DNA of 64,000 nt from Mobula hypostoma (GCF_963921235.1 NC_086124.1:16368001-16432000), one strand, 5' to 3'; shown: positions 6,941 through 64,000, counted from the stretch's first letter. Notes: a model not told the origin generated them from the letters alone. Made by a program: numbers and translations.

Positions 6941-7269
6941 AAAGTTGAAAGTACATTTTATTATCAAAGTATGTATAAATTATCCAATCATGGGATTCGT
7001 CTGCATACAGGCAGCCACAAAACTGAATTTAAAGAAAAGACCACACCCAATCTATAGAGAGTTTAAAAAAAAATCAATTCATGCAAACAATAGAGCAAGC
7101 GTCAGTATTCAGAATGAAGGCAAAGATTAGAGAATGAAATTCCAGTTAGGTCTCCTCTGGAATAGAGTCTAAGAGACTAGTTAGGCCTCGTCCAGAATAC
7201 TACATTCTAGTCTGGTTGGTACTTTACAAGAAAGAACTGAAGACTTTGGAGAAGATTCAGAATAGATTT

Positions 7270-9443
7270 AGTCCATTAGAACAGAAATAGGTCTGTCAGT
7301 ACATCTATTTTACTCTGCCATTTCATCATATCTGAGATTATCCCTGTCAATCACTTTCTTTGGCCTTCTCCCTTGTAACCTTTGACTCCCTGACTAATCA
7401 AGCACCTATCATATTCCATTTTAAATATGCTCAATGACTTGGCCTCCACACATGTCTGTGACAGTGAATTCCACTGAATAACTACCTGCTGGCTCAAGAA
7501 AGTCCTCCTCATCTCTGTTCTCAATAGTAATCTCTCTATTCTGTAGCTGTGCCATTTGATCCTAAGCTCACCCACTACAGGAAACATCCTCACCATATCT
7601 ACTGTATTCATGCCTTTTAATATTTGATAGGTTTTAATAAGATCACCCCTTATTCTTCTGAATTCCAATGAGTTGAGGCCCAGAACCATCAAAGACACAA
7701 AATATATCCACACTGTCACTCCTGGAATCGTTCCTGTGAACTTCCTCTGGACCAACTCAAATGCCAGCACAACTCTTCTCAGATAATAGGATAAAAACTG
7801 CTCATAATACTGAAGTGCTATCTAACCAATGCCTTATAAAAAAGACTCAGCTTTACATGCTTGCTTTTATATTCTCATCCTGTCAAAATGAATACGAACA
7901 TTGAAATTCCCTTCCTTACCATTGACTCAAATGGCAAGATAACCCTTATGGAATCCTGCACAAGTATTCCCAAGTGCCTTCGTACCTCTGATTTTTGAAT
8001 CTTCTCCCTCTTTAGAAAACAGTCTATGCCTTTTTTTCTTCCACCAACGTACATGATCAAACACTTCAAAACACTCTATTGCAACTGAAACTTCTTTGCC
8101 CATTCTTCAAATCTGTCTAAGTCCTTTTGCAGACTCCCAGCTTCTTTAAAACTGACTGCCTCTCCATCTATATTTGTATCATCCATTACTAGGTCTGAAA
8201 GAAGTTTCAGAGGGTTATAAATCAGGTCAGCTCCATCTTGGTTACCAGCCTACAAAGGACGCAGGACATCTTCAAAGAGCAGTGTCTCAAAAGACAGTAT
8301 CCATTATTAAGGACCTCCAGCACCCACGGCATGCCTCAGGTAGGAGGTACAGAAGCCTAAAAGCACACACTCAGTGATTCAGGAAAAGCTCCTGAATAAG
8401 CCCCCCTGCCATTCGATTCCTAAGTACTATCTCAATTTTTAATATAATGTACCTCTGGTTTCTGCACATTTATTAAAAACTATTCAATAAACTGTAATTG
8501 ATTTACTTCTTTCTTTATTATTTTTTTTTATTTTTTTCCCTCTTCTAGATTATGTATTGCATTGAACTGCTGCTGCTAATTTATCAAATTTCATGTCACA
8601 TGCCAGTGATAATAAACCTGATTCTTATTTTGATTCTGAACCTGGCCACAAAAGCCATCAATTCCATCATCCAAACAATTTACATATAACATGAAAAGGA
8701 GTAGTCTCAACACTAAACCTTGCAGTAAAGCACTAGTCACTGGCAGTTAACCAGAAAATGCCTCCATTATTTCCATTCTTTGCCTCCTGCTCTTTGGACA
8801 ATCTTCTATCCATACTGGTACCTTTCCTGTAATACCATGGGTTCTTACCTTCTTAAGCAACCTCATGTTCAGCAACTTGCACAAGCCTTTCTGAAAATCT
8901 GAATAAACAACATTTACTGACTCTCCTTTGTCTATTTTGTCTGTTATTTCCTCAAAGAATTGCAACAGGTTTGTCAGGCAAGATTTCTCCTTTTGAAAAC
9001 CCTGCTGACTTTGGCCGATTTTATCATGTGCCTTCAAAATTCATCAATAACAATGGACTCCAACATCTACCCAACCACTGAAGTCAGACTAACTGGTCTA
9101 TAATTTCCTTCCTACTGCCTCCTTCCGTTCTTAAGAGTGGAATGACATTTCCAAATTTCCAGTTCTCTGGAACTATTCCTGAATCTAGTGATTCTTGAAA
9201 GATCATTATTAATGCCTCCACAATTTCTTCAATTAACTCTTTCAGAATCCAATTGGTCCAGTTGACTTATCTACATTAAGACATTCCAATTCCCCAAGCA
9301 CCTTCTCCTTCCAATAGCAACTGCATTCACTTATATCCCAACACTCTCCAACTTCCATCATACTGCTCGTTTCTTCTACTGTGAAGACTGATGCCAAATC
9401 GTTATTCAGTTAATCTGTAATTCTCTTGTGCTCCATTACTACC
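7270..9443 (-). mobile_element. Old CR1 LINE RT/3' fragment with a nested plus-strand Rex-like 3' end (~8190-8640)
   Basis: ORFs 7351-7770 and 8747-9037 (SQQGFQKEKSCLTNLL). The nested piece reads SIIKDLQHP...SGRRYRSLK and ends in a gattct-type tail. Confidence 0.85.
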
Positions 9444-10450
9444 TGATATTGATCAGCTCAGCATAGGTGCGCAAAGCTATTGGGCAGAAGAAACTGCAGT
9501 TTGATGGACAGGGGAAGCAGACGATCCAGTTGTCTTTATTTCACCCTTTTTGTGGACTCTAAACTAATTCTTGCGGTTGGATAATCTAATCAGAAGAACT
9601 GAATGTGGACACAGAAAGCTTCAAGGAACGATTTGCTGAACCTGAGACCATTCTCTGACAAGTAGTCACTTGTTATGTAAAGAGCGTGGACTCTAATCTG
9701 ATTCTTGACTCTGGGACAATCTAATCAGAGCAACAAACCTGAGACCATTCGCAAAGGAGTAGCTACTTGTCATGTAAAATGGCAGACCAATCTGTAATCT
9801 CATTAGACTCTGTCTGCGTTGCCTCATTTAACTGGTTTGGACCAGTCAGAGTGTAAAGGCATAAATACAAAAGGCTGGGGTGGGCAGAGCCATGAAACAA
9901 TATTGGTTGTAGCCCTGTACAGTGACCAGTAAGCAGGTGACCCAGGTACATCACGTGACCTGAGCCAATAGGATGGAGATGCAATGGTTCAATTGATGAG
10001 GAACAGTATAAGACTCAGGAGCTCTAAGTAAGCAGGGGCGTATTTAGAACCCTCTCCAACAGCCATACACCAACCATTGTGGATAAGGAGGACCCCACAG
10101 ACACGTGGAGATTGGAACCATGAGGAATCCCTGTCCAGTGTAGACTCATTTCCCGGGTAATACCTTTTCTCTTCATTGACGGTTCACGGATTGTCAGGGG
10201 TTCTAGTAGAGAGCACAAAGGTAGATAGGAGTGTGAACCCACATGCTTTTTAGTTGAAATAATAAAAGTTACTTGTTGACACATACAGATTTTCTGTGCC
10301 TCACTGATCATTATTAAAAGGGGTGATTCTTGTAACAGAATTGGTGTCCCTGGCTGGGCTCGATGATAAATCTCTTTGTTCAGCAGGAGACTTGAGTCGG
10401 ACCATGTGAGTGAGGTGCAGAGATTTGGGGCTGGGTAGTTATCGGTTACT
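9444..10450 (+). mobile_element. 5' LTR (9444-10337), tRNA-Asn PBS (10342-10363) and leader of an LTR retroelement; internal region deleted
   Basis: TG...TGTAACA ends, duplicated U3 block, CCAAT at ~9965, TATAA at ~10007, AATAAA at 10261, then TGGTGTCCCTGGCTGGGCTCGA. Confidence 0.85.
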
Positions 10451-16640: not shown

Positions 16641-16985
16641 TTCTCACCCTGTCTCTTGCACTCACAGCTATCTGGACTATTCCTCTTCTCACCCTGTCTC
16701 TTGCAAAAATGCCATCCCCTTCTTGCAATTCCTCCGTCTCCACCACATCTGCTCTCAGGATGAGTCTTTAAAATTCCAGGACGAGGGAAATGTCCTCCTT
16801 TTTTAAAGAAAGGGGCTTCCCTTCCACCACCATCAACTCTGCTCTCAAACGCATCTCCCCCATTTCACGCACATCTGCTCTCACTCCATCCTCCCGCCAC
16901 CCCACTAGGAATAGGGTTCCCCTGGTCCTCACCTACCACCCCCCAGCCTCCGGCTCCAACATATTATTCTCTGTAACTTCCGCCA
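16640..16985 (+). mobile_element. Penelope-like element internal fragment (RT C-terminal/linker region)
   Basis: YLDYSSSHPVSCKNAIPF..FLRL and MSSFFKERGFPSTTINSAL...RVPLVLTYHP. Confidence 0.8.
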
Positions 16986-17259
16986 CAAAACCCAATTTAA
17001 AAAAAGATGATCACCCAATCTACATAGAGAGTAAAAAAACAAATCAATTCATGCAAACAATAAAGCAAGCATCAGTTTTCAGAATGAAATTGAGTCTATA
17101 AACCTGAAGCCAAAGAGGATGAGACTACGCAAGTCCAGTTCAGCCTCCTCTGGATTAGAGTTAAGAGACTAGTTTGGCCTCCTATGGAATACTCCATTCT
17201 AATCCAGTTGGTGCATTATAGGAAAGAATTGAAGATTTTGGAGAGGATTCAGATTTAGG

Positions 17260-19492
17260 CCACAAAAACAGAAAAAGGTCATTCAGTCCATCGATTTTGC
17301 TCTGTTATTCCATCATATCTGAGTTATTAACCCTGTCAATCACATTTTTTCGGCCTTATCTCTGTAATCTTTGACTCCCAACAAATCAAAAACCTATCTA
17401 ATTGCGCTTATATATGCTCAGTTACTTGGCCTCCACAGATGTCTGTGACAAAAAAAAAACACTGAATAACTACCCACTGGCTCGAGAGATTCCTCCTCAT
17501 TTCTGTTCTCAACAGCAATCTCTTTATTCCGTGGCTGTGCCACCTGGTCCTCAACTCACCCAGTACAGAAACATCCTCACCACATCTTCTGTATTCAGGC
17601 CTTTTCATATTCGATAGATTTCAATAAGATCACGCCTCATACTTCTGAACTCCAATGAGTTGAGGCCCAGAGCCATTAAGTGCACAAAATGCATTCACAC
17701 TTTCACTCCTGGAATCATTCTTGTGAACCTCCTCTGGATCCTCTTGAACACCAGCACAACCCTTCTTAGATAATAGACTGAAAACTGCTCACAACACAGC
17801 AAGTGCAGTCTAACCAATGCCTTATAAAAAAGCTTCAGCTTTACATCCTTGTTTTTTTGTTCTTGTCCTGTCAAAATGAATACTAACATTGAATTTCCCT
17901 TCCTTACCACTGACTCAACCAGCAAGATGTGATTTACGGAATCCTGCACAAGTACTCCCAAGTCCCTTTGCACCTCTGACTTTTTAATCTTCTCCCTCTT
18001 TAGAAAACAGTCTATACTTTCCTTTTCCTTCTACCAAAGTACAATATCATACACTATATTGCATCTGAAACTCCTTTGTCCATTCTCAAAATCTGTCTAA
18101 CTCCTTTTGTAGACTCCCAGCTTCTTCAAAACTTCCTGCCTCCCATCCATAATTGTATCATCAATTAACAGGACTGAAAGAAGCTGCAGAAGGTTATAAA
18201 TCTAGTCAGTTCCATCTTGGTTACTAGCCCACAAAGTACGCAGGACATCTGCAGGGAGCAGTGTCTCAAAAGACAGCATCCATTATTAAGGACCTTCAGC
18301 AACCAGGGCATGCTCTCTTCTCACTGTGACCATCAGGTAGGAGGTACAATAGCCTGAAAGCACACACTCAGCGATTCAGGAAAAGCTTCTGAAACAGCCC
18401 CTCTGCCATTCAATTCCTAAATGGACATTGAATCCTTGGACACTACCTCACATTTATTTTTAATACAAAGTATTCTGGTTTTTTGCACTTTTTAAAATCT
18501 ATTCAATATACGTATACTGTAATTGATTTACTTGTTTATTTATTATTATTTTTTATTTTATTTATTGTTATTATTTTTTCTCTCTTCCAGATTATGTGTT
18601 GTATTGAACTGCTGCTGCTAAATTATCAAATTTCACGTCACATGCCGTTGATAATAAACCTGATTCTGATTTTGATTTTGAACCTGGCCATAATGCCATC
18701 AATTCTATCATCCAAATCATTTACATAAGATGAAAAGGAGTTGTCCCACCACATAAATTGCAGTAAACCACCAGTTACTGGCAGATACCCAGAATATGCC
18801 TCCATTATTCCCATTCTTTGGCTCGTGATCTTCAGCCAATCTTCTATCCATACTAGTACCTTTCCTATAATACCATGGGTTCTTACCTTCTTAAGCAACC
18901 GCATATTTAGCAACTTGCACAAGCCTTTCTGAAAATCCAAATAAACAACACCTACCGACTCTCCTTTGTCTATTTTGCCTGTTATTTCCTCAAAGACTTG
19001 CAACAGGTTTGTCAGGCAAGATTTCTCCTTTTGAAAACCCTGCTGACTTTGCCCTAGCTTATCATGTGCCTTCAAGTACTTTGAAAATTCATCAATGACA
19101 ATGGACTCCAACATCTACCCAACCACTGAGTCAGACTAACTGGTCTATAACTTCCTTCCTTCTGCCTCCCTCCCTTCTTAAAATTGTAATGGCATTTTCA
19201 ATTTTCCAGTTCTCTGGAACCATACCTGAATATAGTGATTCTTGAAAGATCATTATTAATGCCTTCACAATCTCTTCAGCTAACTCTTTCAGAACCCATT
19301 TAGTCCAGTTGACTTATCTACCTTAAAGCATTCCAATTGCCTAAGCACCTTCTCCCTCCAGTAGCAACTGCATTCACTTATATCCCCTGACACTCTCCAA
19401 TTTCCATCATACTGCTAGTTTCTTCTACAGTGAAGACTGATGCAAAATAATTATTCAGTTGATCTGTAATTTTCTTGTCCCCCGTTACTACC
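17260..19492 (-). mobile_element. Paralogous CR1 fragment with the same nested Rex-like 3' end (~18170-18680)
   Basis: ORFs 17695-17973 and 18638-19114; collinear with 7270-9443. Confidence 0.85.
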
Positions 19493-22400
19493 TGATATTG
19501 ATCAGCTCAGCAGAGGTGTACGAAGCTGTCGACCAGAGGAAACTGCAGTCTAATCAAGGACAGGGGAAGCAAACAATCCAGTTGTCTTTGTTTCACCCTT
19601 TTTGTGGACTCTAAACTGATTCTTGCAGTTGGGTAATCTAATCAGAGCAACTGAATGTGGAGCCAGGAAGCTTCTAGTAATGAACTGCTAAACCTGACAC
19701 CATTCTCAAGCAAGTAGCCGTTTGTTATGCCATGGCATGGACTGTGATCTGATTCTTCACTCTGGGACAATCTAATCAAAGCAAGAAATATGAGACCGTT
19801 CTCAGAGGAGTAGCTACTTGTCATGTAAAATACCAGACCTGCAGTCTGTAGTCTCATTAGACTCTGTCTGCGTTGCCTCATTTAACTGGTTTGGACCAGT
19901 CAGAGTGTAAAGGCACAAATACAAAAGGCTGGGGTGGGCAGAACCATGAAACGTTGTTGGTTGTCACCTGTACAATGATCAGTAAGCAGGTGATCCAGGT
20001 ACATCAGGTGACCGATAGCCAATTGGATGGAGATGCAATGGTTCAATTGATGTGAAATAGTACAAGACTCAAGAGCTCCGAAAGCAAAGGGCAATCACTC
20101 TCCAGCAGCCAGAGAGCAACCACTGAGGATAAGGAGGACCCCAAAGACACGTGGAGATTGGGACCATGAGGAACGCCAGTCCAGTGCAGACTCCTTTCCC
20201 AGGTAATACCTTTTCTCTTCATTGACTGTTCATAGAGTATCAGGAATTCTAGCAGGGAGCACACAGGTAGATAAGGGTGTGAACCCACATGCTTTTTAAA
20301 TGAAATAATAAAAGTTACTTGTTGCCAAATACAAATTTTCTGTGCCTTACTGATCATTATTACAAGGGGCAATTCTTGTAACAGAATTGGCATCCCTGGG
20401 TGGGCTCGAGGAAAAAATCTCTTTGTTCAGCAGGAGCCTCGAGTCAGACCACGTGCTTGAGGTACATAGATCTGGGGCTGGGTAATTATTGGTTACTCAC
20501 CCAGGATAAAGTATTCAGGAAATTCCGCAAGTCCACAGGTGGATTATTTTGATGCAAGGGGATACCTCCAGAGATACATGTTGGGGTAAATGGCCACATT
20601 ATGAGAAGTTTGTCGTTCACCCTGTCCATGAACGGAAAACTGCTGGTGATGCCCTGTGGAAAATCGCCCAAGGGAAGCTGTTGAACAGGAAGTTTAAACA
20701 ATTACAAAAACCAGTAGCAGTTGGTTGTTTTACTGAGGATTTGATAGAGTTACAACAAAATGCTAAAGAAGAATGGCATAGATTACAAACAGAAAATGAA
20801 TGTCGGCATAAAGCAGAGGCTGAGCAAGATAGGTTACAATAGGCAATCCTAGAATATCTCCAAAATGCTGAAACCCGGTGAGACATGTTACCGCAGGAAA
20901 TCCTAGAATATCAGCTGAAAGCTGAAGCCAAGCGAGATAGGTTAGAAGGAGAACTCAAATTATTCCATAAGGAAGTAGAATCCTTTAGAGAAAGGGTTAT
21001 TGATTAATAGTGTCAGAGAGAGATTGACTTGATGTCGATGAGCCAGTTTCAGTTAAAGTCTGAGAGAGAGAAAGCAAGCGAGAGCGTGAGAGAGCGCGCG
21101 AGCAACCACGAGAGAGAGAGAGCGCGATCCAGAGAGCGCCATGGCAGAGTGTTCAAAACCAAAAAGAAAATATGAAACATATGTCACCCCAGACTACACT
21201 AAAGTGTACCCCTGCCTAATAGGGATCAAAAATAATGACAGTGTTGCTCGCTGCACTGTTTGCAACAGTGACTTTTCTATTGCCCATGGTGGGTTAAGAC
21301 TGTAAAAGACACGTTGAGGTGAGTTTAACAGGTGTCATTCGTTCATTAGCATAGCTAACATTATTTAAACTAGCTGGCTAGCTGCTAAGGAGCTACTCTC
21401 TTGCAGATATCCCACCTCTCCGGGAAGTTCCAGGAATCTCCCGCAAATTGTGGTGCTACCTCCCTGAAATGATTTTTGCAGGGTGGGATGTCTGTTAAGG
21501 AATCAGTGAAGTGATTTAAAAATGGCTATGAATATGATTCAGAAATCAGCACAGGAAAGGAAGAGTAACACTAGCGATCATGCAAAGTGTTTAAAACATA
21601 TTCAAAAACTGCAGGACCAACTTACACAGCAAGGTATAATATGTGCTTTTGGATCTGAAAAAGGGAAAGAAGGTGAATATGGACATTGATTGGCATGATT
21701 TAGCAGACAAAGCTACTAGATACGCTGACAATAATTACAGAGCATCATTTCCGGAGGAACTCCCACCAACACCATACTAACGGGAGCCGGTCCTACCATC
21801 TGCACAATTGGCACCCCTAGTTACTCTCAGAGGGGGGGGAACAGGGGAGCAAATCAAAATCAGAATAGAACAAACACCACACCATTTGGGATACAGCAGC
21901 TTAGAGATATTGCTAAGGATATGGGAACATGTGTGCTCGGGGAGGACACGAGAGATTTTCCAAGCAATTAGTCATCAGAGAATAATACATTGACTAGACG
22001 ATTCTGAGGAAAGGAAAAAGATTATAATATGCTTTTAAAAAATAATAATATGCTTACACACAAGTATACACTCACCTTTGTCAGATATACAATGACATGG
22101 TGGGGGAACAAGTGAGGGACTGTAAAACACAATAATGAGTGTCATGGGTGTTAATAAAGGGGACCCAGTAGATGTGCTAGCCAAATGTTACCAGAGGAGA
22201 GGTGAACATCCTGGTTATGGACTGTGTTCCAAGGGGTTTATTGGACAGCATTAGAGCAGGACCCTTTTGGACCAGAGGTCTCAAATAGATGGTTGAGGGC
22301 ACTGGTGTCTCACTGTACTAATGAATCTAAAAAGGCAGTGGAAATGTTTGATCCTTTTGAACTCATACATACTGAGGCATGGGTACTGAGGAAAATGTGT

Positions 22401-23230
22401 AGAGCGTGGGAAAAAGAGATACAAAGCCCAAATAAACTCGCTAATGGATGGTGACGCCTATTAAAAGTCAGGTACCTGCATGGAGAAATGAGGGTAGGGG
22501 ACCTACAGCGAGGGCCTCCCTGCCGCACTATCAAGGGACAAGGAAGAGCAGAGGAAATGGAACAGGCAGAACTGAAGGTGCAGTAATTAAATGCTACAAC
22601 TGTGGTCAAAAGGGGCACATTAAGAGAGAATGTCCAATCCAGAGACGAGAAAGAACAGAGCAATGCGGTTTGCCCTTGGAGGGGCCAGAAAGGTGGAGCC
22701 TACAAAATAACATAGCTGAGACACCTCCATCTAGGGAATTGTACTCTGGGCTTCAATGATGGAGTCAGGCCTCACCAACCTGGGTGTGTGACACAAGGTG
22801 GGATGAAACCGGAAGACCTCCAGTGAGTGGTAGGGCCAGAGGACACACTGTTACCTTTTTGGGGGATACTGCAGGATCCCAAACCACTGTCAGCATCACT
22901 AATATAAATAATGTAAATTGGAAGATACAAGGTAAAATTATCCAAAGTGGATTCACAGGACATTCACAATTGGGACATGTGAGTGTACCATTGGAAGTTA
23001 GAATAGGAGCCATATCATTGAAGCATTCAATAGTGTTGGTGAAATTACCCAGGGAGCAGGACCATATACAGGGGTGTGATTATATGGCCAAAGCGGGGCT
23101 TTGCTTTGACCCAGTTAATTGTATGATTTGGCAGATGCCAGTTGGCATGAATAACATGCGTGCGCAGCTCTCCAGTGAAAATGATATTGTGTCCGTAAAA
23201 TAGGGGCCGTGGACAATTTTGATTTGATGG
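19493..23230 (+). mobile_element. Retrovirus-like LTR element: LTR (19493-20383), tRNA-Asn PBS (20388-20409), decayed gag and protease; 3' truncated
   Basis: PBS TGGCATCCCTGGGTGGGCTCGA; coiled-coil ORF 20549-20842; CYNCGQKGHIKREC knuckle in ORF 22448-22759; aspartic protease FLGDTAGS...HIQGCD in ORF 22784-23203. Confidence 0.9.
21010..21494 (+). mobile_element. Non-autonomous hAT-like DNA transposon remnant inserted in gag, with a BED-finger-like exon and terminal inverted repeat
   Basis: GA-rich tract, then gcgccATGg at 21141 reading MAECSKPK...ARCTVCNSDFSIAHGG/DCKRHVE, donor gtgagt at 21319, and inverted repeat cagatatcccacc...ggtgggatgtctg at 21404-21494. Confidence 0.65.
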
Positions 23231-23757
23231 AGAATGGACGTAAAAGCACAGAGGAACATCTGGAGAAATTTCTGAAACGCCCGTTCGCTGCTATCGTTAC
23301 TGTGTGGTCGTGAATCTTTTGGAGGGTAGGCCTCAAAATCCCCGGCCTTGCCTGCTTTTGGTGACCAAGAAGGAGGTCAAATTGTTCGGACAGAGATGGC
23401 GCTCAGTACTCGGTGTCGGAGAGCTGATCAGAGCCCAAAATTTTCGGATGACTCAGAGTCCGATTGTGGTAGGCATGGCAGGGAGAGTTTTTCTTCCTTC
23501 TCCTGTCTGCGTGAGATGTGGGACATTTGAGAAACTTTGAACTTTACAGTGCTCACGGACTTCTTCAAGTTATGGTATTGTTACCCTGTTTGTAACTATA
23601 TGTTATAATTATGTTGTTTTGTCAGTTTTTTCAGTCTCGGTTTGTCCTGTGTATTGTGATATCACACCGGAGGAAATAATGTATCATTTCTTAATGCATG
23701 CATTACTAAATGACAATAAAAGAGGAATATGTGTCTTCATAATCATCATAGTCATAA
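23230..23757 (+). mobile_element. Unclassified SINE-like retroposon ending in AATAAA and a short (cataat)-like tail
   Basis: CpG-rich body that replaces the pol region of the LTR element. A reverse-complement copy of its 3' end lies at 16083-16130. Confidence 0.5.
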
Positions 23758-24042
23758 CATACACAACATGCAGACCCAGCAGGAGTATATCGGGATAGAA
23801 TACGCACAACGGGTGAAATGTGGGTAAAACTGGAGGAGATGAGCAATGATCAGAAGGTGCAGCAAATCATTGCACAGAACTCGCAGGGATTGCAACGCAC
23901 AAGCATGACTGCAGAAAGACGGCTGCAGACTTGTCTGCTTCCCCTGTCCTTGACTAGACTGCAGTTTCTTCTGGCCAACAAAGCAGAACCAATACAGTTA
24001 TTGATGTGGCACAAGATGAGATGGACAGCATTACCAGTGAAG

Positions 24043-31030: not shown

Positions 31031-31794
31031 AGAAGCCTCTCCCAGCCTATTGACCCGGAACCTTGCCGGGAAGTGACCGTTCTTCGCGCTAGCAGGGTAA
31101 GAGGGTAAAGGGAAAGTTGTGGCTGACATTAAACAAAGGAAAACGTAAAATACAAATGCAGATGAAAGGTTCAAACTAAATTTATTATCTAAGTACATAT
31201 ATTTCACCATCAAGAAGCATGATTCATTTTCTTGTGGGCATAAACAGACTGAGAAGAGAGTATGTCCTGGGCGGTGTTAAACTAATAATATTAGTTAGGC
31301 CGTCTCTGGAGCGGAGGCTAGTCCTCTTCTGGACTCGTATAAAATTCTAGTTAGGCCTCCTCGGATAAGAGACTAAAGTCTAGTTAGGACTCCTGGGGAT
31401 TTGAGCTAAAAGTCTAGTTAAGCCTTCTCTGGAGTGCTGTTCAAAAATCTAGGTCAGCCTTCTCAAAGTTGAAAGCTCAAAGTACATTTTATTATCAAAA
31501 TATGTATAAATTATACAATCTTTGGATTTGTCTGCTTACAGGCAGCCACAATACCCAATTAAAAAAAAATCAACACCCAATCTACAGAGAGAGAAAAACA
31601 TAAATCAATTCATGCAAACAATAGAGCAAGCATCAGATTTCAGAATGAAATGCGTTCATAAACCTGAAGCTGGAGAGGATTAGGGTATAAAAGTCCATTT
31701 CAGCCTCCACCGGAATACTACATTCAAGTCTGGTTGGGGCATTAGAGGAAAGAACTGAAGACTTTGGAGAGGATTCGGAATAGATTTAGGCTAT

Positions 31795-33544
31795 AAGAAC
31801 AGAAATACGTCATGCAGTCCATAGATTTTGCTCTGTCATTCCATCATATCTGAGTTATTAGCCCTGTCAATCACACTCTTCGGCCTTCTCCCTGTAACCT
31901 TTGACTCCTGACTAATCAAGCACCTATCATATTCCAAAAATTCATCAGTAACAATGGGCTCCAACATCTACCCAACCACTGAAGTAACCACAGTAATTGG
32001 CCAATGACTTGGCCTCCGCAGCTGTCTGTGACAATGAATTCCACTAAGTAACTACCTGCTGGCTCAATAAAGTCCTCCTCATCTCTGTTCTCAATAGACA
32101 TCTCTCTCTTCTGTGACTGTGCTATTTCTTTCTAGATTCACCCACTACAGGAAGCATCCTCACCACATCTACTTTGTTCAGGCCTTTTAATATTTGATAG
32201 GTTTCAATAAGATCACCCCTCAGTCTTCTGAACCCCAATGAGTTGAAGCCCAGAGCCATCAAATGCAGAAAATACATTCACACTTTCACTCCTGGAATCA
32301 TTCTTGTGAACCTCCTCTGGACCTTCTCGAACACCAGTGCAACTCTTCTTAGATAATAAGCTAAAAACTACTCACAATATAGCAAGAGTAGTCTAACCAA
32401 TGCCTTACAAAAAAAGCCTCAGCTTTACATCCTTGCTTTTACATTCTCATTCTGTCAAAATGCATACTAGCATTCAATTTCCCTTCTTTAGCACTGGCTC
32501 AACTGGCAAGTTAGCCTTTACAGAATCCTGCACAAGTAGTTCCAATTCCCTTTGCACCTCTGATTTTGAATCTTCTCCCTCTTTAGAAAATAGTTTGTTT
32601 TATTTTTTTTCTACCAAAGTACATGACCATACACTATATTGCGTCTGCAATTTCTTTGTCTATTCTCCAAATCTCTCCAAGTCTTTTTGCAGACTCCTAT
32701 CTTCTTCAAAACTTCCTGTCTCTCCACCTATATTTGTATCCGCCAATAATCTGGTCAAAAAGCCATCAATTACATCATCCAAGTCACTTACATATAACAT
32801 GAGAAGTAGTGGTCTCATTGGTCACTGGCAGCTACCCAGAAAAGGCCTCCGTTGTTCCCATTCTTTGCCTCCTGCTCTTCACCCAATTTTCTATCCATAC
32901 TAGTGCCTTTCCTATAATACTGTGGGTTCATACCTTCTTAAGCAACCACACATTCAACAACTTGCACAAGCCTTTCTGAAAATCCTAATTAACAATATCT
33001 ACTGACTCTCCTTTGTCTACTATGCCCCTTATGTCCTGAAAGAATTGCAACAGGTATGTCAGGCAAAATTTCTTCTTTAGAAAATCCTGCTGACCTTGAC
33101 CTAGCTTATCATGTGCCTTCAAGTACCTCGAAAATTCATCAATAACAATGGACTCCAACATCTACCCAACCACTGAAGTTAGACTAATTGGTCTATAATT
33201 TCCTTCTTTCTGCCTCTCTCCCTTCTTAAAAATGGAATAACATTTTCAATTTCCCAGTCCTCTGGAGCTATTCCTGAATCTAGTGATTCTTGAAAGATCA
33301 TTATTAATGCCTCCACAATCTCTTCAATTAACTCTTTCAGAACCCATTTGTTCCACTTGACTTATCTAACTTAAGACATTCCAATTGCCCAAGCACCTTC
33401 TCCCTCCAGTAGCAATTGTATTCACTTATGTCCCCTGACACTCCTCAACTTCCATCATACTGCTACTTTCTTCTACAGTGAAGACTGATGCAAAATACAG
33501 TAATGATTTACTTGATCTGTAATCCCCTTGCCCCCATTATTACC
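31795..33544 (-). mobile_element. Paralogous CR1 fragment lacking the Rex-like insertion
   Basis: Collinear with 7270-9443 and uninterrupted at ~32745. Confidence 0.85.
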
Positions 33545-33855
33545 TGATATTGCTCATTTCAGCATGGGTGCATGAAGCTGCTGGCCAGAGGAAACAGCAG
33601 TCTAATATAGGACAAGTGATGCAGACATCCAGTTTTCTTTGTTTCACCCTTTTGTCAAATCCAAACTGATTCTTGCAGTTGGATAATCTAATCAGAGGAA
33701 CTGAATGTGGACACAGGAAGCTTCAAGTAATGATCTGCTAAACCTGAGACCATTCTCAAACAAGTAGCCATTTGTTATATAATGGCATGGACTATGATCT
33801 GATTCTTGACTCTGGGACAATCTAATCAGAGAAACCAACCTGAGCCCATTCTCAG
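33545..33855 (+). mobile_element. Truncated third copy of the same LTR (U3 part only)
   Basis: Matches ~9444-9750, then jumps to sequence homologous to ~10714. Confidence 0.8.
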
Positions 33856-43546: not shown

Positions 43547-43875
43547 CAAGTGGTGATTGATAAGTTCGTGGCCTAAGGTAGAAGAAGTCAATCTTAGAAA
43601 ACCTAGCACATTTATCTTTCAATATAGTCCCCTCTTACATTTACACACTTAGTCCAGTGGTCGTGGAGCATACGGATCCCTTCTTTGTAGAAGTCGGCAT
43701 CTTGGACCTCCAGAAAGTGGTCCACAGCAGGGATGATTTATACGTTTGTGGCCTATGGTAGAAGGAGATGAGTAATTAACCTCAAACTATCTGCATAATC
43801 ACTCAAACAGTTGAACTGCACGTGCATGTAACGAGAGTGGTATTACTCATCTCCTTCTACCTTACGCCACAAACT
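43547..43875 (-). mobile_element. Non-autonomous mariner derivative (transposase C-terminus plus TIR copies)
   Basis: Minus strand reads AVDHFLEVQDADFYKEGIRMLHDHWTKCVNVRGDYIER-stop. The TIR-like gtggcctaaggtagaag occurs at ~43568 and ~43748 and is inverted at ~43852-43871. Confidence 0.75.
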
Positions 43876-45060
43876 CCCCAGTGCAAACTCACTGATGTAG
43901 CTCTAGTTCAAATGACAGAGTGAATCCTTTCACGCAGTCTCAAAAGGTGAAAGACCTCAGCCCAATGTGAACTGACTGGTGTGTCAGTCGTTGAGATGAA
44001 CAGGCAAATCCTTTTCCTCAGTCAGAGCAGTTTGACAGCCTCTGCCCGGTGTGAACTGATTGGTGTCTCTGTAGACTGGATGACTGAGTGAACCCCCTCC
44101 CACACATAGAACAGGTGAACAGTCTCTTCCCAGTGTGAACTCACTGGTGTTTCTGTATGGTGGATAATTGTGCAAATCCCTTCCCACAATCTAAGCAGAT
44201 GAAAGGCTTCTCTCAAGTGTGAACTAACTGGTGTGCCTGTAGTTGAGATGACTAAGTGAATCTCTTCCCGCAGTCTGAGCAGGCAAATGCCTTCTCCCCA
44301 GTGTGAATTCGCTAATGCATCTTCAGTTGGGATGACTGAGTGAATCCCTTCCCACAGTCTGAGCAGATGAACGGTCTCTCTCCAGTGTGAACTCACTGAT
44401 GTGCCAGTAGTTGAGATGACAGGATAAATCCCTTCCTACTGTCTGAGCAGGTGAATGATCTGTCCCCAGTGTGAACTCGCTGGAGTCTGTGTAGGTTGAT
44501 TAACTGAGTGAACCTTTTCCCACATTCTGAGCAGGAGAATGGTCTCTCTCCAGTGTGAACTCGCTGGTGTGCCAGTAGGTCAGATGAATGGTTGAATGCC
44601 TTCCTACAGTCTGAGCAGGTAACCCGCTTCTCTCAAGTGTGAATTCGCTGATGTACCTTCAGTTGAGATGACCGAGTGAATCCCTTCCCACAATCCGGAC
44701 AGGTGAACAGCTTCTCTCCAGTGTGAATTTGCTGGTGTCTCTGTGCTTTGGATGACTGAGTAACTCCCATCCCACAATCTGAACAGATGAACAGACTCTC
44801 CCCAGTATGAACTCATCGATGTCTCTGTAGGTCAGGTGACCAAATGACTGTCTTAACACAGTCTGAGCAGGTGAACGGCCATTCCTCAGTGTGAACTCGC
44901 TGGCGTCTCCGCAGATGGCAGGACTATGTAGATCCTTTCCCACAGTTCTCTATCAATTCTCTGGCATCATTTCAGCTGCCAGACGCAGTGAATCCCTCAC
45001 ACAGTCAATGCACTTAAAGGACTGATCTCTGGTGAACAAAAGCTGATGTGATCTCAGCTC
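43876..45060 (-). pseudogene. C2H2 zinc-finger tandem array (~13 fingers), pseudogene
   Basis: An 84-bp period encodes [19 protein letters not shown]. In-frame stops occur (e.g. GST-stop near 44925), and the ORF track has no long ORF in the finger frame. Confidence 0.9.
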
Positions 45061-60077: not shown

Positions 60078-62645
60078 TTCTTCTTCTTCTATTTCGGGCT
60101 GTTTAGACAAAACTAGGCATATTACAGCCCTCTACAGGATGTATAATTAATTATAGAACTTCAAGGAACTCAAATTCTCGAATACAACCTAGTCTCACGT
60201 ATAAACTGAATAACAGACTCTTCAATCAAATGTTGATTCTCTTGATGGCCAAACAAATATTTAATAGAAAACCAAAATAAATTTAAGCCAGATCGCCTCT
60301 TGAACATGCTTCTTTCAATTTTGTATGGATTACAGCTCAGTAAAACATGCTGGACTGTCTCTGGACTACCACAGTCACATAATCCAGTAGGATATTTTCC
60401 TATTATCTTTAAATAATAGTTGAGCCCACAAAGCCCCAAACTAAGTCTTGTAAATTTCACCACATCTCTACGACTTAAAAGGTAACAGTCTGAGACCTTT
60501 TTAACTAGTGGGTGACTAGAAAAATAATGCCTGCCCCTTAATTCATTTTTCCAAACCTCCGGCTACTTCTTCTCTATACCTTTTTTAATCCTACTTCTCA
60601 ATTCTGCTCTGCCTAGGGGAACTCTAATTTCTACTTGCCTGCTTTGTAAGGAAGACTTTGCAATGGCATCCACAATTTCATTTCCCTCCACCCCAGCATG
60701 CCCAGGTAGCCATGAAAGTCTAACTGCACAACCCAACTTCCCTACTCTAAACAACACTAAGAGAATCTCAATAACTATGTCAGGATGAGCTTTTGATTTA
60801 CTCCCTTTTATAGACTCTAAGGCAGCAACAGAATCCAAACAGATGATAACCCTACATGGTCGAGAGTCTTCTATCCACCATAAGGCCCAGAGGCTTGCTA
60901 ATAATTCTGTTGCAAAGACAGAAACGCCATCTGTAACCCGTTGACTAATCTTAACTCCAAGTTGAGACACATACATCTCAAATTCTGCCCAACTGCTCTC
61001 TGGGTCCACTGAGCCATCAGTAAAAATCTTCAGATAAGATTCCCATTTATTATTTAAATATTCATTTGTGATCAATGCTGATGAAATTGCACTGCTTCCT
61101 TTCAGCTGAAAAAGGAGGAATAGGTCTACTTCTGGTTCTGGAAAGAGCCAAAAAGGGATGGGTGGTAAGCAAATTTGGTCCATTATGTCTTCCTCGGTCA
61201 GTTTCAATTTCACAGCCCAGTTATTAACCAAATCTAAAAATGTGTATCTTTTAATTTTACTTTGGTGCTCCGACTTCCCCTGCAAAAAGACACTTTGATA
61301 GACAGCTGTGATTGAATCCATTTAGTTTTACCCAATACTGCAGGCCCAACTGAATTTGTCTTAAATGCAGGGCACTTCTCCCATCTCCGCACATAATGCC
61401 GGGACTGATGTTGTTCTAAAAGCTCCACAACAGAGTCTAACTGCTTTGGACTGCACAGTGCCTAGTTTTCCAAGCACTGTCGTAGCAGCGGAACCATAAA
61501 CAATACAACCATAATCTATAACTGGTCTAATCATAGCTAGATATATTAAATACATAGTTTCCCGCCCTGCTCCCCAGTCACATCCAGCAATACTTCTCAT
61601 AACATTTAAAACTTTCTCACACTCCAATTGCTTTATCTATATGAACCCTCCAAGAAAGTCTTTCATCAAACCAAACACCTAAGAACTTGAATACCTTGCT
61701 CTTTCCAGTGGAGAATCATATAGACACAATTCACAATCAGGAATTTTTCTTCTAAAGCCAAAAATCATGTATTTGGACTTAGAAGCAGAAATCCTGAAAC
61801 CCCATTTATTAGCCCAGTTTTCAACTGATCTTAAAGCCTTTTGTACCTGCCTTAATATATACTTGATATTTCTTCCTCTTTTCCAGATTGCACCATCATC
61901 TGCAAACAATGATTTGCAAAATCCTGTCTCAACCTGATCAAAGATATCATCTATCATGACATTAAGAAGAACTAGACTAATGACACTTCCTTGAGGGGTA
62001 CCATTACCTATTTTAACTGACTTGGAGCTTGTTCCACCTATTTTTACTTGAACCATCCTTTCCTTAAGGAAATCTTTGATCCAATTAAACATTCTACCTT
62101 TAATTCCCGCATCATAGAGTTTAATTAATAACTTATCCTTCCATAGTGAGTCATGTGCTCTTTCAATATTTAGAAATACACTTAACATTACTTCTCTATT
62201 TTGAAACGCTTTTTTAATATCATGATCTAAAAGGGCAACAGATTCCATTGTTGATCTTCCAGTTCTAAAGCCATTTTGATAGGCAGCAAAATGTCCCTTA
62301 TTTTCCAAAAAATAAACAAGTCTGTTGGTGACCATTCGTTCCATAGTTTTACAAAGCACTGACGTTAAAGCTATAGGCCGATACGAACTAGGACTTGAGG
62401 CGTCCTTATCTGACTTTAAAACTGGAACTACCACCGCATGCTTCCATTCTACTGGTAATTTTCCTTCTTTCCACACTGAATTAAACAATGCTAGAATTCC
62501 TATTAATACAGAGTCATCTAAATGCTTAAGCAATGCATAACACAGTCCATCCCTACCAGGAGAAGTGTTTGAACCTGATTGAACAGCTTCCTGCAATTCC
62601 TGAAGGGAGAAAAACAAAATTCTGGAGCTATTATCATCCAAACTC
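60078..62645 (-). mobile_element. I/Nimb-type LINE 3' half: RT, RNase H, CCHC finger, (GAA)n tail
   Basis: ORF 61679-62713 (YRPIALTS...PQGSVIS...LFADD), ORF 60563-61321 (FTDGS...WLPGHAGVEGNE), ORF 60170-60463 (CDCGSPETVQHVLLSC); gaagaagaagaa tail. Confidence 0.93.
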
Positions 62646-64000
62646 CTGTCCAATTTCCAACTTAGACAGAAGTAGCTTCCTCTCACGTTCCCCTTAAATA
62701 TTTCACCTTTCACCCTTCACCATTCACCTCTAGTTGTCGTCCCACTCAACCCCAGAGAAAAAAAAACTGCTCTCATTTACCTTATCTATCTCCTCACAAT
62801 TTTCTAGCTCTCAGAAATCTCCCTTCAATCGTCCACGTTCCAATAAATAAAGTTCTAAACTATTCAATCTTTCCTTATACCTTGGGGCTAATGCGAAGGC
62901 GTGACGGTCACAGTTCGTTCTCAATATCACCCATGCGCTCAGTGGACAAAAGTCCTGGGAGAATCGGTAGCAGAAAGTAACAGGGCTCTGGGTGGGGGTT
63001 TATGAGCACCGGCGTCTGCACCATGACCCTGGGACAATCGCTGTGAGCCCGGACATGCTGTGGCCCAGCAGTCCGGAATAATCTCAGTTGTTTCCATCTG
63101 TTTCAGTGCCACGATCCGTACCCAGGCCCCGGGAAGCTTTTGCGGATGAGCGAAGGTACTCGCACCATTTCGCATGCGCATTGCTGGGGCACTGTGACAG
63201 GTAGATCGGCCTCTCCTTTGTGGTGCTTTCTGGGTAGAGAGGCAGCCATGGGTGACACTTCCACCGGTTTCCCCACCAGTCTGCAGTGCGTGTTTGGAAG
63301 CACGAACGGTGGAATGGAAGCGGATGGTTCTGCCAGACAATGTCGTACTCCACCTATCCAAGTCCAAGGATGAGTAACTCGTGACAAAATATAGAGAATC
63401 GTCCCGTTAATGGAAATGATTCTGCTGCATGGAAAAAAGAATACAATCTTTCCATCGGCTTTAATTTTTGAGAAAATCACCTTTGTTCGAGCTCTTCTTC
63501 TGGACCTTTCTACCTGTGAGAACAAGTTTTGCCCATCTCCTGGTACATAGGGGACATAATGGTATCAAACACCTTTGTCCTGAGTAACAAGTGACCTGCA
63601 GCTTTCACATCACAGAAGTGCCACACTCCAATGAGAAATCCTGCTGCCCTCCTCTTCATATTCATTGGCATTGCCACTGATTATTTTAACACTGTCAATC
63701 ACCTGTGTTTGGGGGTGGGGGGTAGAGGGAAAGGGAGTCAGATTAATTAGAAATTCTTAGGATTACCTGCCGTAACATAGAAACTAAAATTATTTCATCT
63801 GAGATGTCACCCTTCACACATCAATATTTTTTGTAATTCATTTTACAGGTTAGCAATGGCAAATAATTTGTGCAGGGGAATCTCAAACATAACAAAATGT
63901 TAGTTTTGCTGTCTCTGTCCAAATATTTAATGAGTGACCAAATATTTCCTCAGTAACGTCAATATATCTGGTATTGATTCTTGGAGATGACAAACCACCC

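Follow-up and report, generated by a model that had tools for sequence, protein, structure and literature searches.

The window analysed here, a 64-kb stretch (G000:C80:16368001-16432000) of a 3.48-Gb searched genome, contains a retrovirus-like LTR element that breaks off after its protease, and it raises the question of which lineage an element belongs to when the reverse transcriptase (RT) that would place it is missing from the sequence at hand. A preliminary description, made from the window alone, had recognized a tRNA-Asn primer site, a coiled-coil Gag and a single zinc knuckle, and had likened the element to lokiretroviruses. We find instead that what survives in the window is very probably the defunct 5′ half of a single insertion (LTR, tRNA-Asn primer site, gag and protease), derived from an old, high-copy endogenous retrovirus (ERV) family. 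By its RT this family groups with snakehead retrovirus (SnRV); a cartilaginous fish is its likely host, and its Env is likely to be paramyxovirus-F-like.

The features of the window element and its local duplicates are collected in Table 1. The LTR end TGTAACA reported earlier lies at 20377-20383 and is followed by the 4-nt gap described for it, while both outer limits required correction. The LTR had been given as about 890 bp from 19493, whereas dispersed copies begin with TG at the base matching 19527; the element had been extended to 23230, and family homology ends before this point. Within Gag, the coiled-coil-type N-terminus, judged from the sequence and weak Pfam matches rather than with a dedicated predictor, and the DHAKCLKHIQKLQ segment (the DHAKC segment) are both present, as are the single CX2CX4HX4C knuckle and the protease that had been placed after Gag. 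The capsid is assigned within the second part of gag by position only, and a Pfam search of the window gag found no capsid family. Every frame of the window element is interrupted by stops and frameshifts. Other copies of the family have the same organization at this end, with one knuckle per copy in all seven copies scanned and a TGA at the gag-pol junction in five of the seven copies in which the junction pattern matched (17 copies tried).

Table 1. The window element, its duplicates and adjoining sequences, in window coordinates.
Feature	Position	Strand	Remarks
5′ LTR, TG...CA	19527..20383	+	857 bp; ends set by dispersed copies and solo LTRs
Spacer GAAT, 4 nt	20384-20387		between LTR end and primer site
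Primer-binding site for tRNA-Asn(GTT)	20388..20409	+	21/22 match to host tRNA-Asn genes plus CCA
gag, N-terminal part, coiled-coil-type repeats; broken, start codon not fixed	20510..21065	+	64% identical to equivalent region in another copy
429-bp insert splitting gag	21066..21494	no strand	gap in alignments to all 20 covering loci; without family match
Remaining gag (coiled-coil end, putative capsid, nucleocapsid); broken	21495..22756	+	
Single CX2CX4HX4C zinc knuckle	22592..22633	+	Pfam zf-CCHC PF00098, E 5.9e-9
In-frame TGA separating gag from pro-pol, likely read through	22757..22759	+	
Protease region	22760..23157	+	PF13975 E 0.0015, below Pfam cut-off; family homology ends at 23157
Unrelated dispersed repeat replacing rest of window element	23180..23760	no strand	also an insert within pol of other loci
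Inverted fragment, 5′ end of LTR	23931..23980	-	90% over 50 nt
Segmental duplicate of same LTR and primer site (10342-10363)	9478..10450	+	common upstream flank
Third duplicate: flank and first third of LTR	33047..33855	+	

The proposed complementarity of the primer site to the 3′ end of tRNA-Asn(GTT) plus CCA extends over 22 nt, with 20/22 matches in the copy at 10342; the best other 22-mer on the plus strand of the window reaches 14 matches, compared with 21 at the primer site. Comparison with host tRNA genes, which the preliminary description had called for, gave the corresponding match: the tRNA-side 19-mer has 22 exact matches in the genome and its reversed control none, and ARAGORN finds a tRNA-Asn(GTT) at 19 of these 22 sites. 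A run of pairing to tRNA position 55 is similar in foamy and lentiviral primer sites, so the 22-nt match is unsupported as a special feature. A primer variant longer by 1 nt is common to six of 13 primer sites (L002, L004, L008, L015, L016 and L040) and marks a subfamily; no host tRNA gene for this variant was found, three of its four genome matches being known element copies.

The second copy of the LTR and primer site, at 10342, differs from the first by opposite CpG changes, as had been noted, but it is not an independent element. It belongs to a duplicated block (7014-10450, 83% alike to 16982-20497) with an upstream flank in common. A fourth duplicate, L001, lies about 14 kb before the window and retains two RT pieces. 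The copies at 10342, at 33047-33855 and in L001 are duplicates of one insertion. The locus as a whole is a mosaic of segmental duplicates (window 7014-10450, 16982-20497 and 31245-33855, and L001), mostly spaced at 10-15 kb and about 80-87% alike, in which the LTR and its flank have been copied at least four times.

Genome-wide searches with the LTR and internal part, suggested as a means of recovering fuller copies, yielded copies with RT, integrase and env. A first look gave 1,993 candidates with the knuckle-protease part as query and 1,787 with the LTR (about 2,000), and the 40 scored in each set were 78-88% identical; 40 internal and 20 LTR loci were retrieved for analysis. Full copies elsewhere are arranged as LTR-gag-TGA-PR-RT-tether-RNase H-integrase-env-PPT-LTR, with Pfam matches to RVT_1 (E 2e-35) and, in one frame, to RT_RNaseH (the tether) followed by RNase_H, and with readable integrase motifs. 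Exact 4-bp target duplications flank 13 of 18 solo LTRs (the 18 of the 20 LTR loci with both ends and host flanks), and none of the 18 has a duplication of 3, 5 or 6 bp. The family is old: the two LTRs of a provirus differ by a K2P distance of 0.14-0.17 in three proviruses and 0.06-0.10 in two partial pairs, and ten solo LTRs differ by 0.12 on average. All copies read are decayed. At one further locus three element copies are repeated in tandem, about 23.8 kb from one to the next (G000:C9:200384370-200443230), and another copy has an inverted LTR-gag-pol segment of the family beside its own pol-env (L022:1-3915).

The RT of these other copies, with the motif LPQG...YVDD, allows the family to be placed. 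Compared by eye, it shares long word-for-word stretches with the SnRV RT printed in the supplement of PMC7947760, and by BLASTP it is 50% identical to SnRV, compared with 36-38% to Loki-type and 35-38% to gamma-type RTs. Identity to SnRV together with its amphibian and coelacanth relatives is 50-59%, the best database relatives being coelacanth, frog and unnamed Pols at 51-59%, and among PDB entries the RT ranks foamy virus (133 bits) above MLV (107) and Ty3 (87). In a first tree (61 rows, mixture model) the RT falls inside the canonical retroviruses (99/94) and within a 24-row clade that includes SnRV (88/76); a second tree (38 of the 61 rows, LG+G4), from which five host rows, two of them frameshifted, and redundant references were dropped, gives 99/97 and 92/82 for the same groupings. 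Among the rows, P0016 matches the printed SnRV RT, and P0042-44 and P0082 carry the Loki motif as judged by eye against the published alignment. Among these rows, which include no named foamy, ERV-L or HERV-S sequence and in which most neighbours are unnamed or misnamed database proteins, the family RT groups with SnRV, with support that is moderate and not starred. Gamma- and epsilon-type rows form a clade apart from it in both trees. The trees and the second RNase H thus bear out the earlier view of the element as retrovirus-like but outside both the gamma/epsilon ERVs and the Gypsy elements.

The same evidence could be read as a separate deep retrovirus lineage outside classes I and II, lying near SnRV, Ovex1, ERV4 or foamy-like ERVs and outside the SnRV clade proper. 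SnRV is the longest branch of the clade, whose support is moderate, the primer, target duplication length and Env type of the window family are unlike those of the SnRV-like element of elephant shark, and SnRV- and Ovex1-related ERVs are left unclassified in PMC4299795. We nevertheless consider such a lineage unlikely, given the RT wording in common with SnRV, the matching Gag and gag-pol anatomy, and the presence of a knuckle, which ERV4, ERV3 and foamy viruses lack according to PMC4299795.

A far less probable reading is that of the preliminary description, in which the family would be a lokiretrovirus. This would be the first in cartilaginous fishes, as six chondrichthyan genomes were screened and none is marked positive in Table S2 of PMC7947760, and the family has a dual RNase H and probably an Env resembling paramyxovirus F, both traits of lokiretroviruses, the latter published for them in that paper. 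The likely F-like Env is a Loki-like trait that turned up in other copies and is invisible from the window alone. The dual RNase H (tether and RNase H) is not Loki-specific; to our knowledge, it is common to all retroviruses. Against a lokiretrovirus, the RT motif is LPQG and not the PFG of all 24 published Loki RTs, RT identity is higher to the SnRV group, and the Loki rows fall outside the canonical retroviruses in a separate clade (100/99). A joint clade of host and Loki rows is rejected by an AU test that was set up after the first tree (p-AU 0.013; LG+G4, 38 of 61 rows). A search of the published Loki consensus set, in which line breaks can hide a match, did not find the tRNA-Asn primer string (PMC7947760). 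The lokiretrovirus reading had arisen because of the coiled-coil Gag and single knuckle, which are published SnRV traits (PMC2717909).

We give almost no credence to a Gypsy-type retrotransposon that, in the manner of errantiviruses, acquired an F-type env: although F-type env genes are widespread among metazoan Gypsy elements (PMC13524379) and Baculo_F and Gypsy env clusters are also among the ESM Atlas matches of this Env, the family has a tether and a second RNase H rather than the single RNase H of Ty3/Gypsy, and its RT lies inside the retroviruses, apart from the Gypsy rows (Metaviridae) in both trees. Two further placements were rejected. A class I (gamma/epsilon) ERV does not agree with an RT outside the class I clade, nor with the two long env frames described below (L085 and L084), in which a motif scan found no ISD, CX6-7CC or CXXC. 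An ERV3 or ERV4 is expected to have 5-bp target duplications and no zinc finger, compared with 4 bp and one knuckle here; the criteria are those of PMC4299795, where 4 bp is given for ERV1 and 5 bp for ERV3/ERV4.

The window family is thus new but belongs to a clade already known. Its primer is unusual, as its envelope probably is too, and it is not a lokiretrovirus. SnRV is primed by tRNA-Arg, and the window family differs from it in using a tRNA-Asn primer. The two are alike not only in RT but also in their coiled-coil Gag, single zinc knuckle, in-frame stop between gag and pol and dual RNase H (PMC12193657, PMC4977317, PMC2717909), and the last of these sources describes suppression of the gag stop in SnRV. 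SnRV-like ERVs have been reported in elephant shark (PMC4422223), and chondrichthyans are rich in clade III RTs (PMC11089739). Lineage I of these elephant-shark elements (CmiERV) likewise has an SnRV-like Pol in a cartilaginous fish and, by eye, a coiled-coil Gag with one knuckle and a TGA ending gag. It differs in its primer site and in its env, which in the printed DNA, read by eye, has a gamma-type immunosuppressive motif that the env of the window family lacks; it also differs in abundance, with three near-complete CmiERVs compared with about 2,000 window-family candidates (PMC4422223). Foamy viruses have a retroviral Env with F-like architecture (PMC11468914), as the family likely does, and they provide the best PDB match to its RT and, with their Env, a weak Foldseek match, whereas foamy Gag lacks a knuckle and foamy Pol is not made by read-through. 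Since SnRV-like ERVs of cartilaginous fish were already known by RT, the window element is no surprise in this respect, and it adds no new hosts to the lokiretroviruses. In the literature within reach, that is, outside subscription papers, Repbase and bioRxiv supplements, we found no account of the family, its Asn primer, its 4-bp target duplications or an F-like Env in the SnRV clade.

The envelope gene has lost about 1.6 kb in many copies. In a search of the 3′ region with the short form as query, about 24 loci run through one point at which another 11 break, and these 11 carry about 1.6 kb more, corresponding to env; one deletion junction is common to all six short copies printed. The env of the long form encodes a furin site, a hydrophobic fusion-peptide-like stretch, heptads, a cysteine-rich region and a transmembrane (TM) segment. 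Two long frames, L085 from the window family (548 aa) and L084 from a sister family (733 aa), are 41% identical, and about 400 residues separate the furin site from the TM segment in L084. The first ESM Atlas matches for both env queries, one of which is from the sister family, were PF00523 paramyxovirus F clusters (0.92, 203 features; 0.94, 200 features), these scores being computed from protein parts, for which no calibration is stated. Pfam found nothing significant on the env pieces, and neither did phmmer and profile searches against PDB, whose weak S2 spike rows (E 0.6-0.9) are not evidence; when the env pieces were compared by phmmer with all retrieved proteins, no env relative from Loki or Gypsy elements emerged. 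The sister-family Env ectodomain was modelled twice with AlphaFold2, and both models were poor (pLDDT 42 and 52, pTM 0.26). Foldseek at E<=0.001 returned no matches for the first and four for the second, with TM-scores under 0.2, and the matches of these poor models to F-like viral glycoproteins, granulovirus F, and foamy and WDSV Env were weak (TM-scores about 0.2 or less); VIA-align returned generic helical hairpins only. On the language-model evidence, with no sequence-profile support, the Env of the window family is likely F-type.

An F-like Env has been published for foamy viruses, with orthoretroviral Env placed in another subclass (PMC11468914), and env swaps are reported to be frequent in fish and amphibians (10.1101/2021.11.23.469661). 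All 10 env relatives looked up, out of 18, are shark proteins, from four shark genera, and they suggest that the host is a cartilaginous fish. In Heterodontus, an env-like piece of this env group is annotated inside an fbxo15 isoform, and a 317-aa relative is found on an equally long contig (P0215, P0207).

These features suggest a life history in which the ancestral virus would have primed minus-strand synthesis with tRNA-Asn, made Gag-Pol through read-through of the TGA, and integrated with a 4-bp target duplication. Its entry into cells may have relied on a class I fusogen that was cleaved by furin and had an extended TM ectodomain. Invasion of the germ line would have been followed by the wider spread of a form missing some 1.6 kb of env, a spread that was likely intracellular or helped in trans. 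The window copy has itself been copied together with its flank, interrupted by an insert and truncated past the protease.

The sister-family env is open over 733 codons (G000:C2:126459313-126461514; L084:2313-4514), with a signal-like N-terminus in addition to the furin site and TM segment, in a provirus whose gag-pol is riddled with stops and inserts. Its best genome relatives are 80-86% identical, and all five close sister copies retrieved are broken. Pairwise dN/dS is 0.36-0.47 for the open env against three sisters and 0.63-0.87 among the sisters, rough values from local alignments (two further sisters gave too few codons). The open env is also present in four other organisms. In run X2, possibly RNA, positions 2302-5400 of L084 are covered by two contigs of about 94-95% identity; their listed indels fall past the env stop and sum to 12 gap letters, with none listed within the frame. 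In one of the contigs the first 64 nt are unaligned, and this loose 5′ end begins to match at an AG immediately ahead of the start codon, as at a splice junction. No RNA dataset is listed as a holder among the records matching this env. A repeat beside the env was considered as an LTR pair and rejected on inspection, leaving the provirus without an LTR date. We regard the env as a candidate for a conserved, apparently spliced, co-opted gene, with the support for conservation and splicing coming from one run.

Chondrichthyans have many origins of live birth, and the open env is a candidate captured gene in this group. A survey of fish Envs started from gamma- or beta-type queries (10.1101/2021.11.23.469661), and a 2026 chondrichthyan syncytin screen required ISD and CX6-7C motifs (10.64898/2026.05.06.723177), so surveys of either kind would likely miss both the window family and the sister open env. 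If true, the pairing of an F-like Env with an SnRV-clade Pol is relevant to the question of what kind of envelope the earliest retroviruses carried. A wider proposal, tentative enough that we would sooner expect it to fail than to hold, is that sharks and rays harbour an SnRV-clade orthoretrovirus lineage with a paramyxovirus-F-like Env, not a gamma- or beta-type one, which would point to an F-type Env as ancestral in retroviruses, and that the sister-family env, open, spliced and conserved across related species, is a domesticated host gene invisible to gamma-type syncytin screens.

Elsewhere in the window, on the minus strand, there are a C2H2 zinc-finger array of 84-bp repeats with several stops, likely a pseudogene (43874-44950), and non-LTR retrotransposon open reading frames in which, by eye, motifs resembling RT and RNase H can be read (60170-62716).
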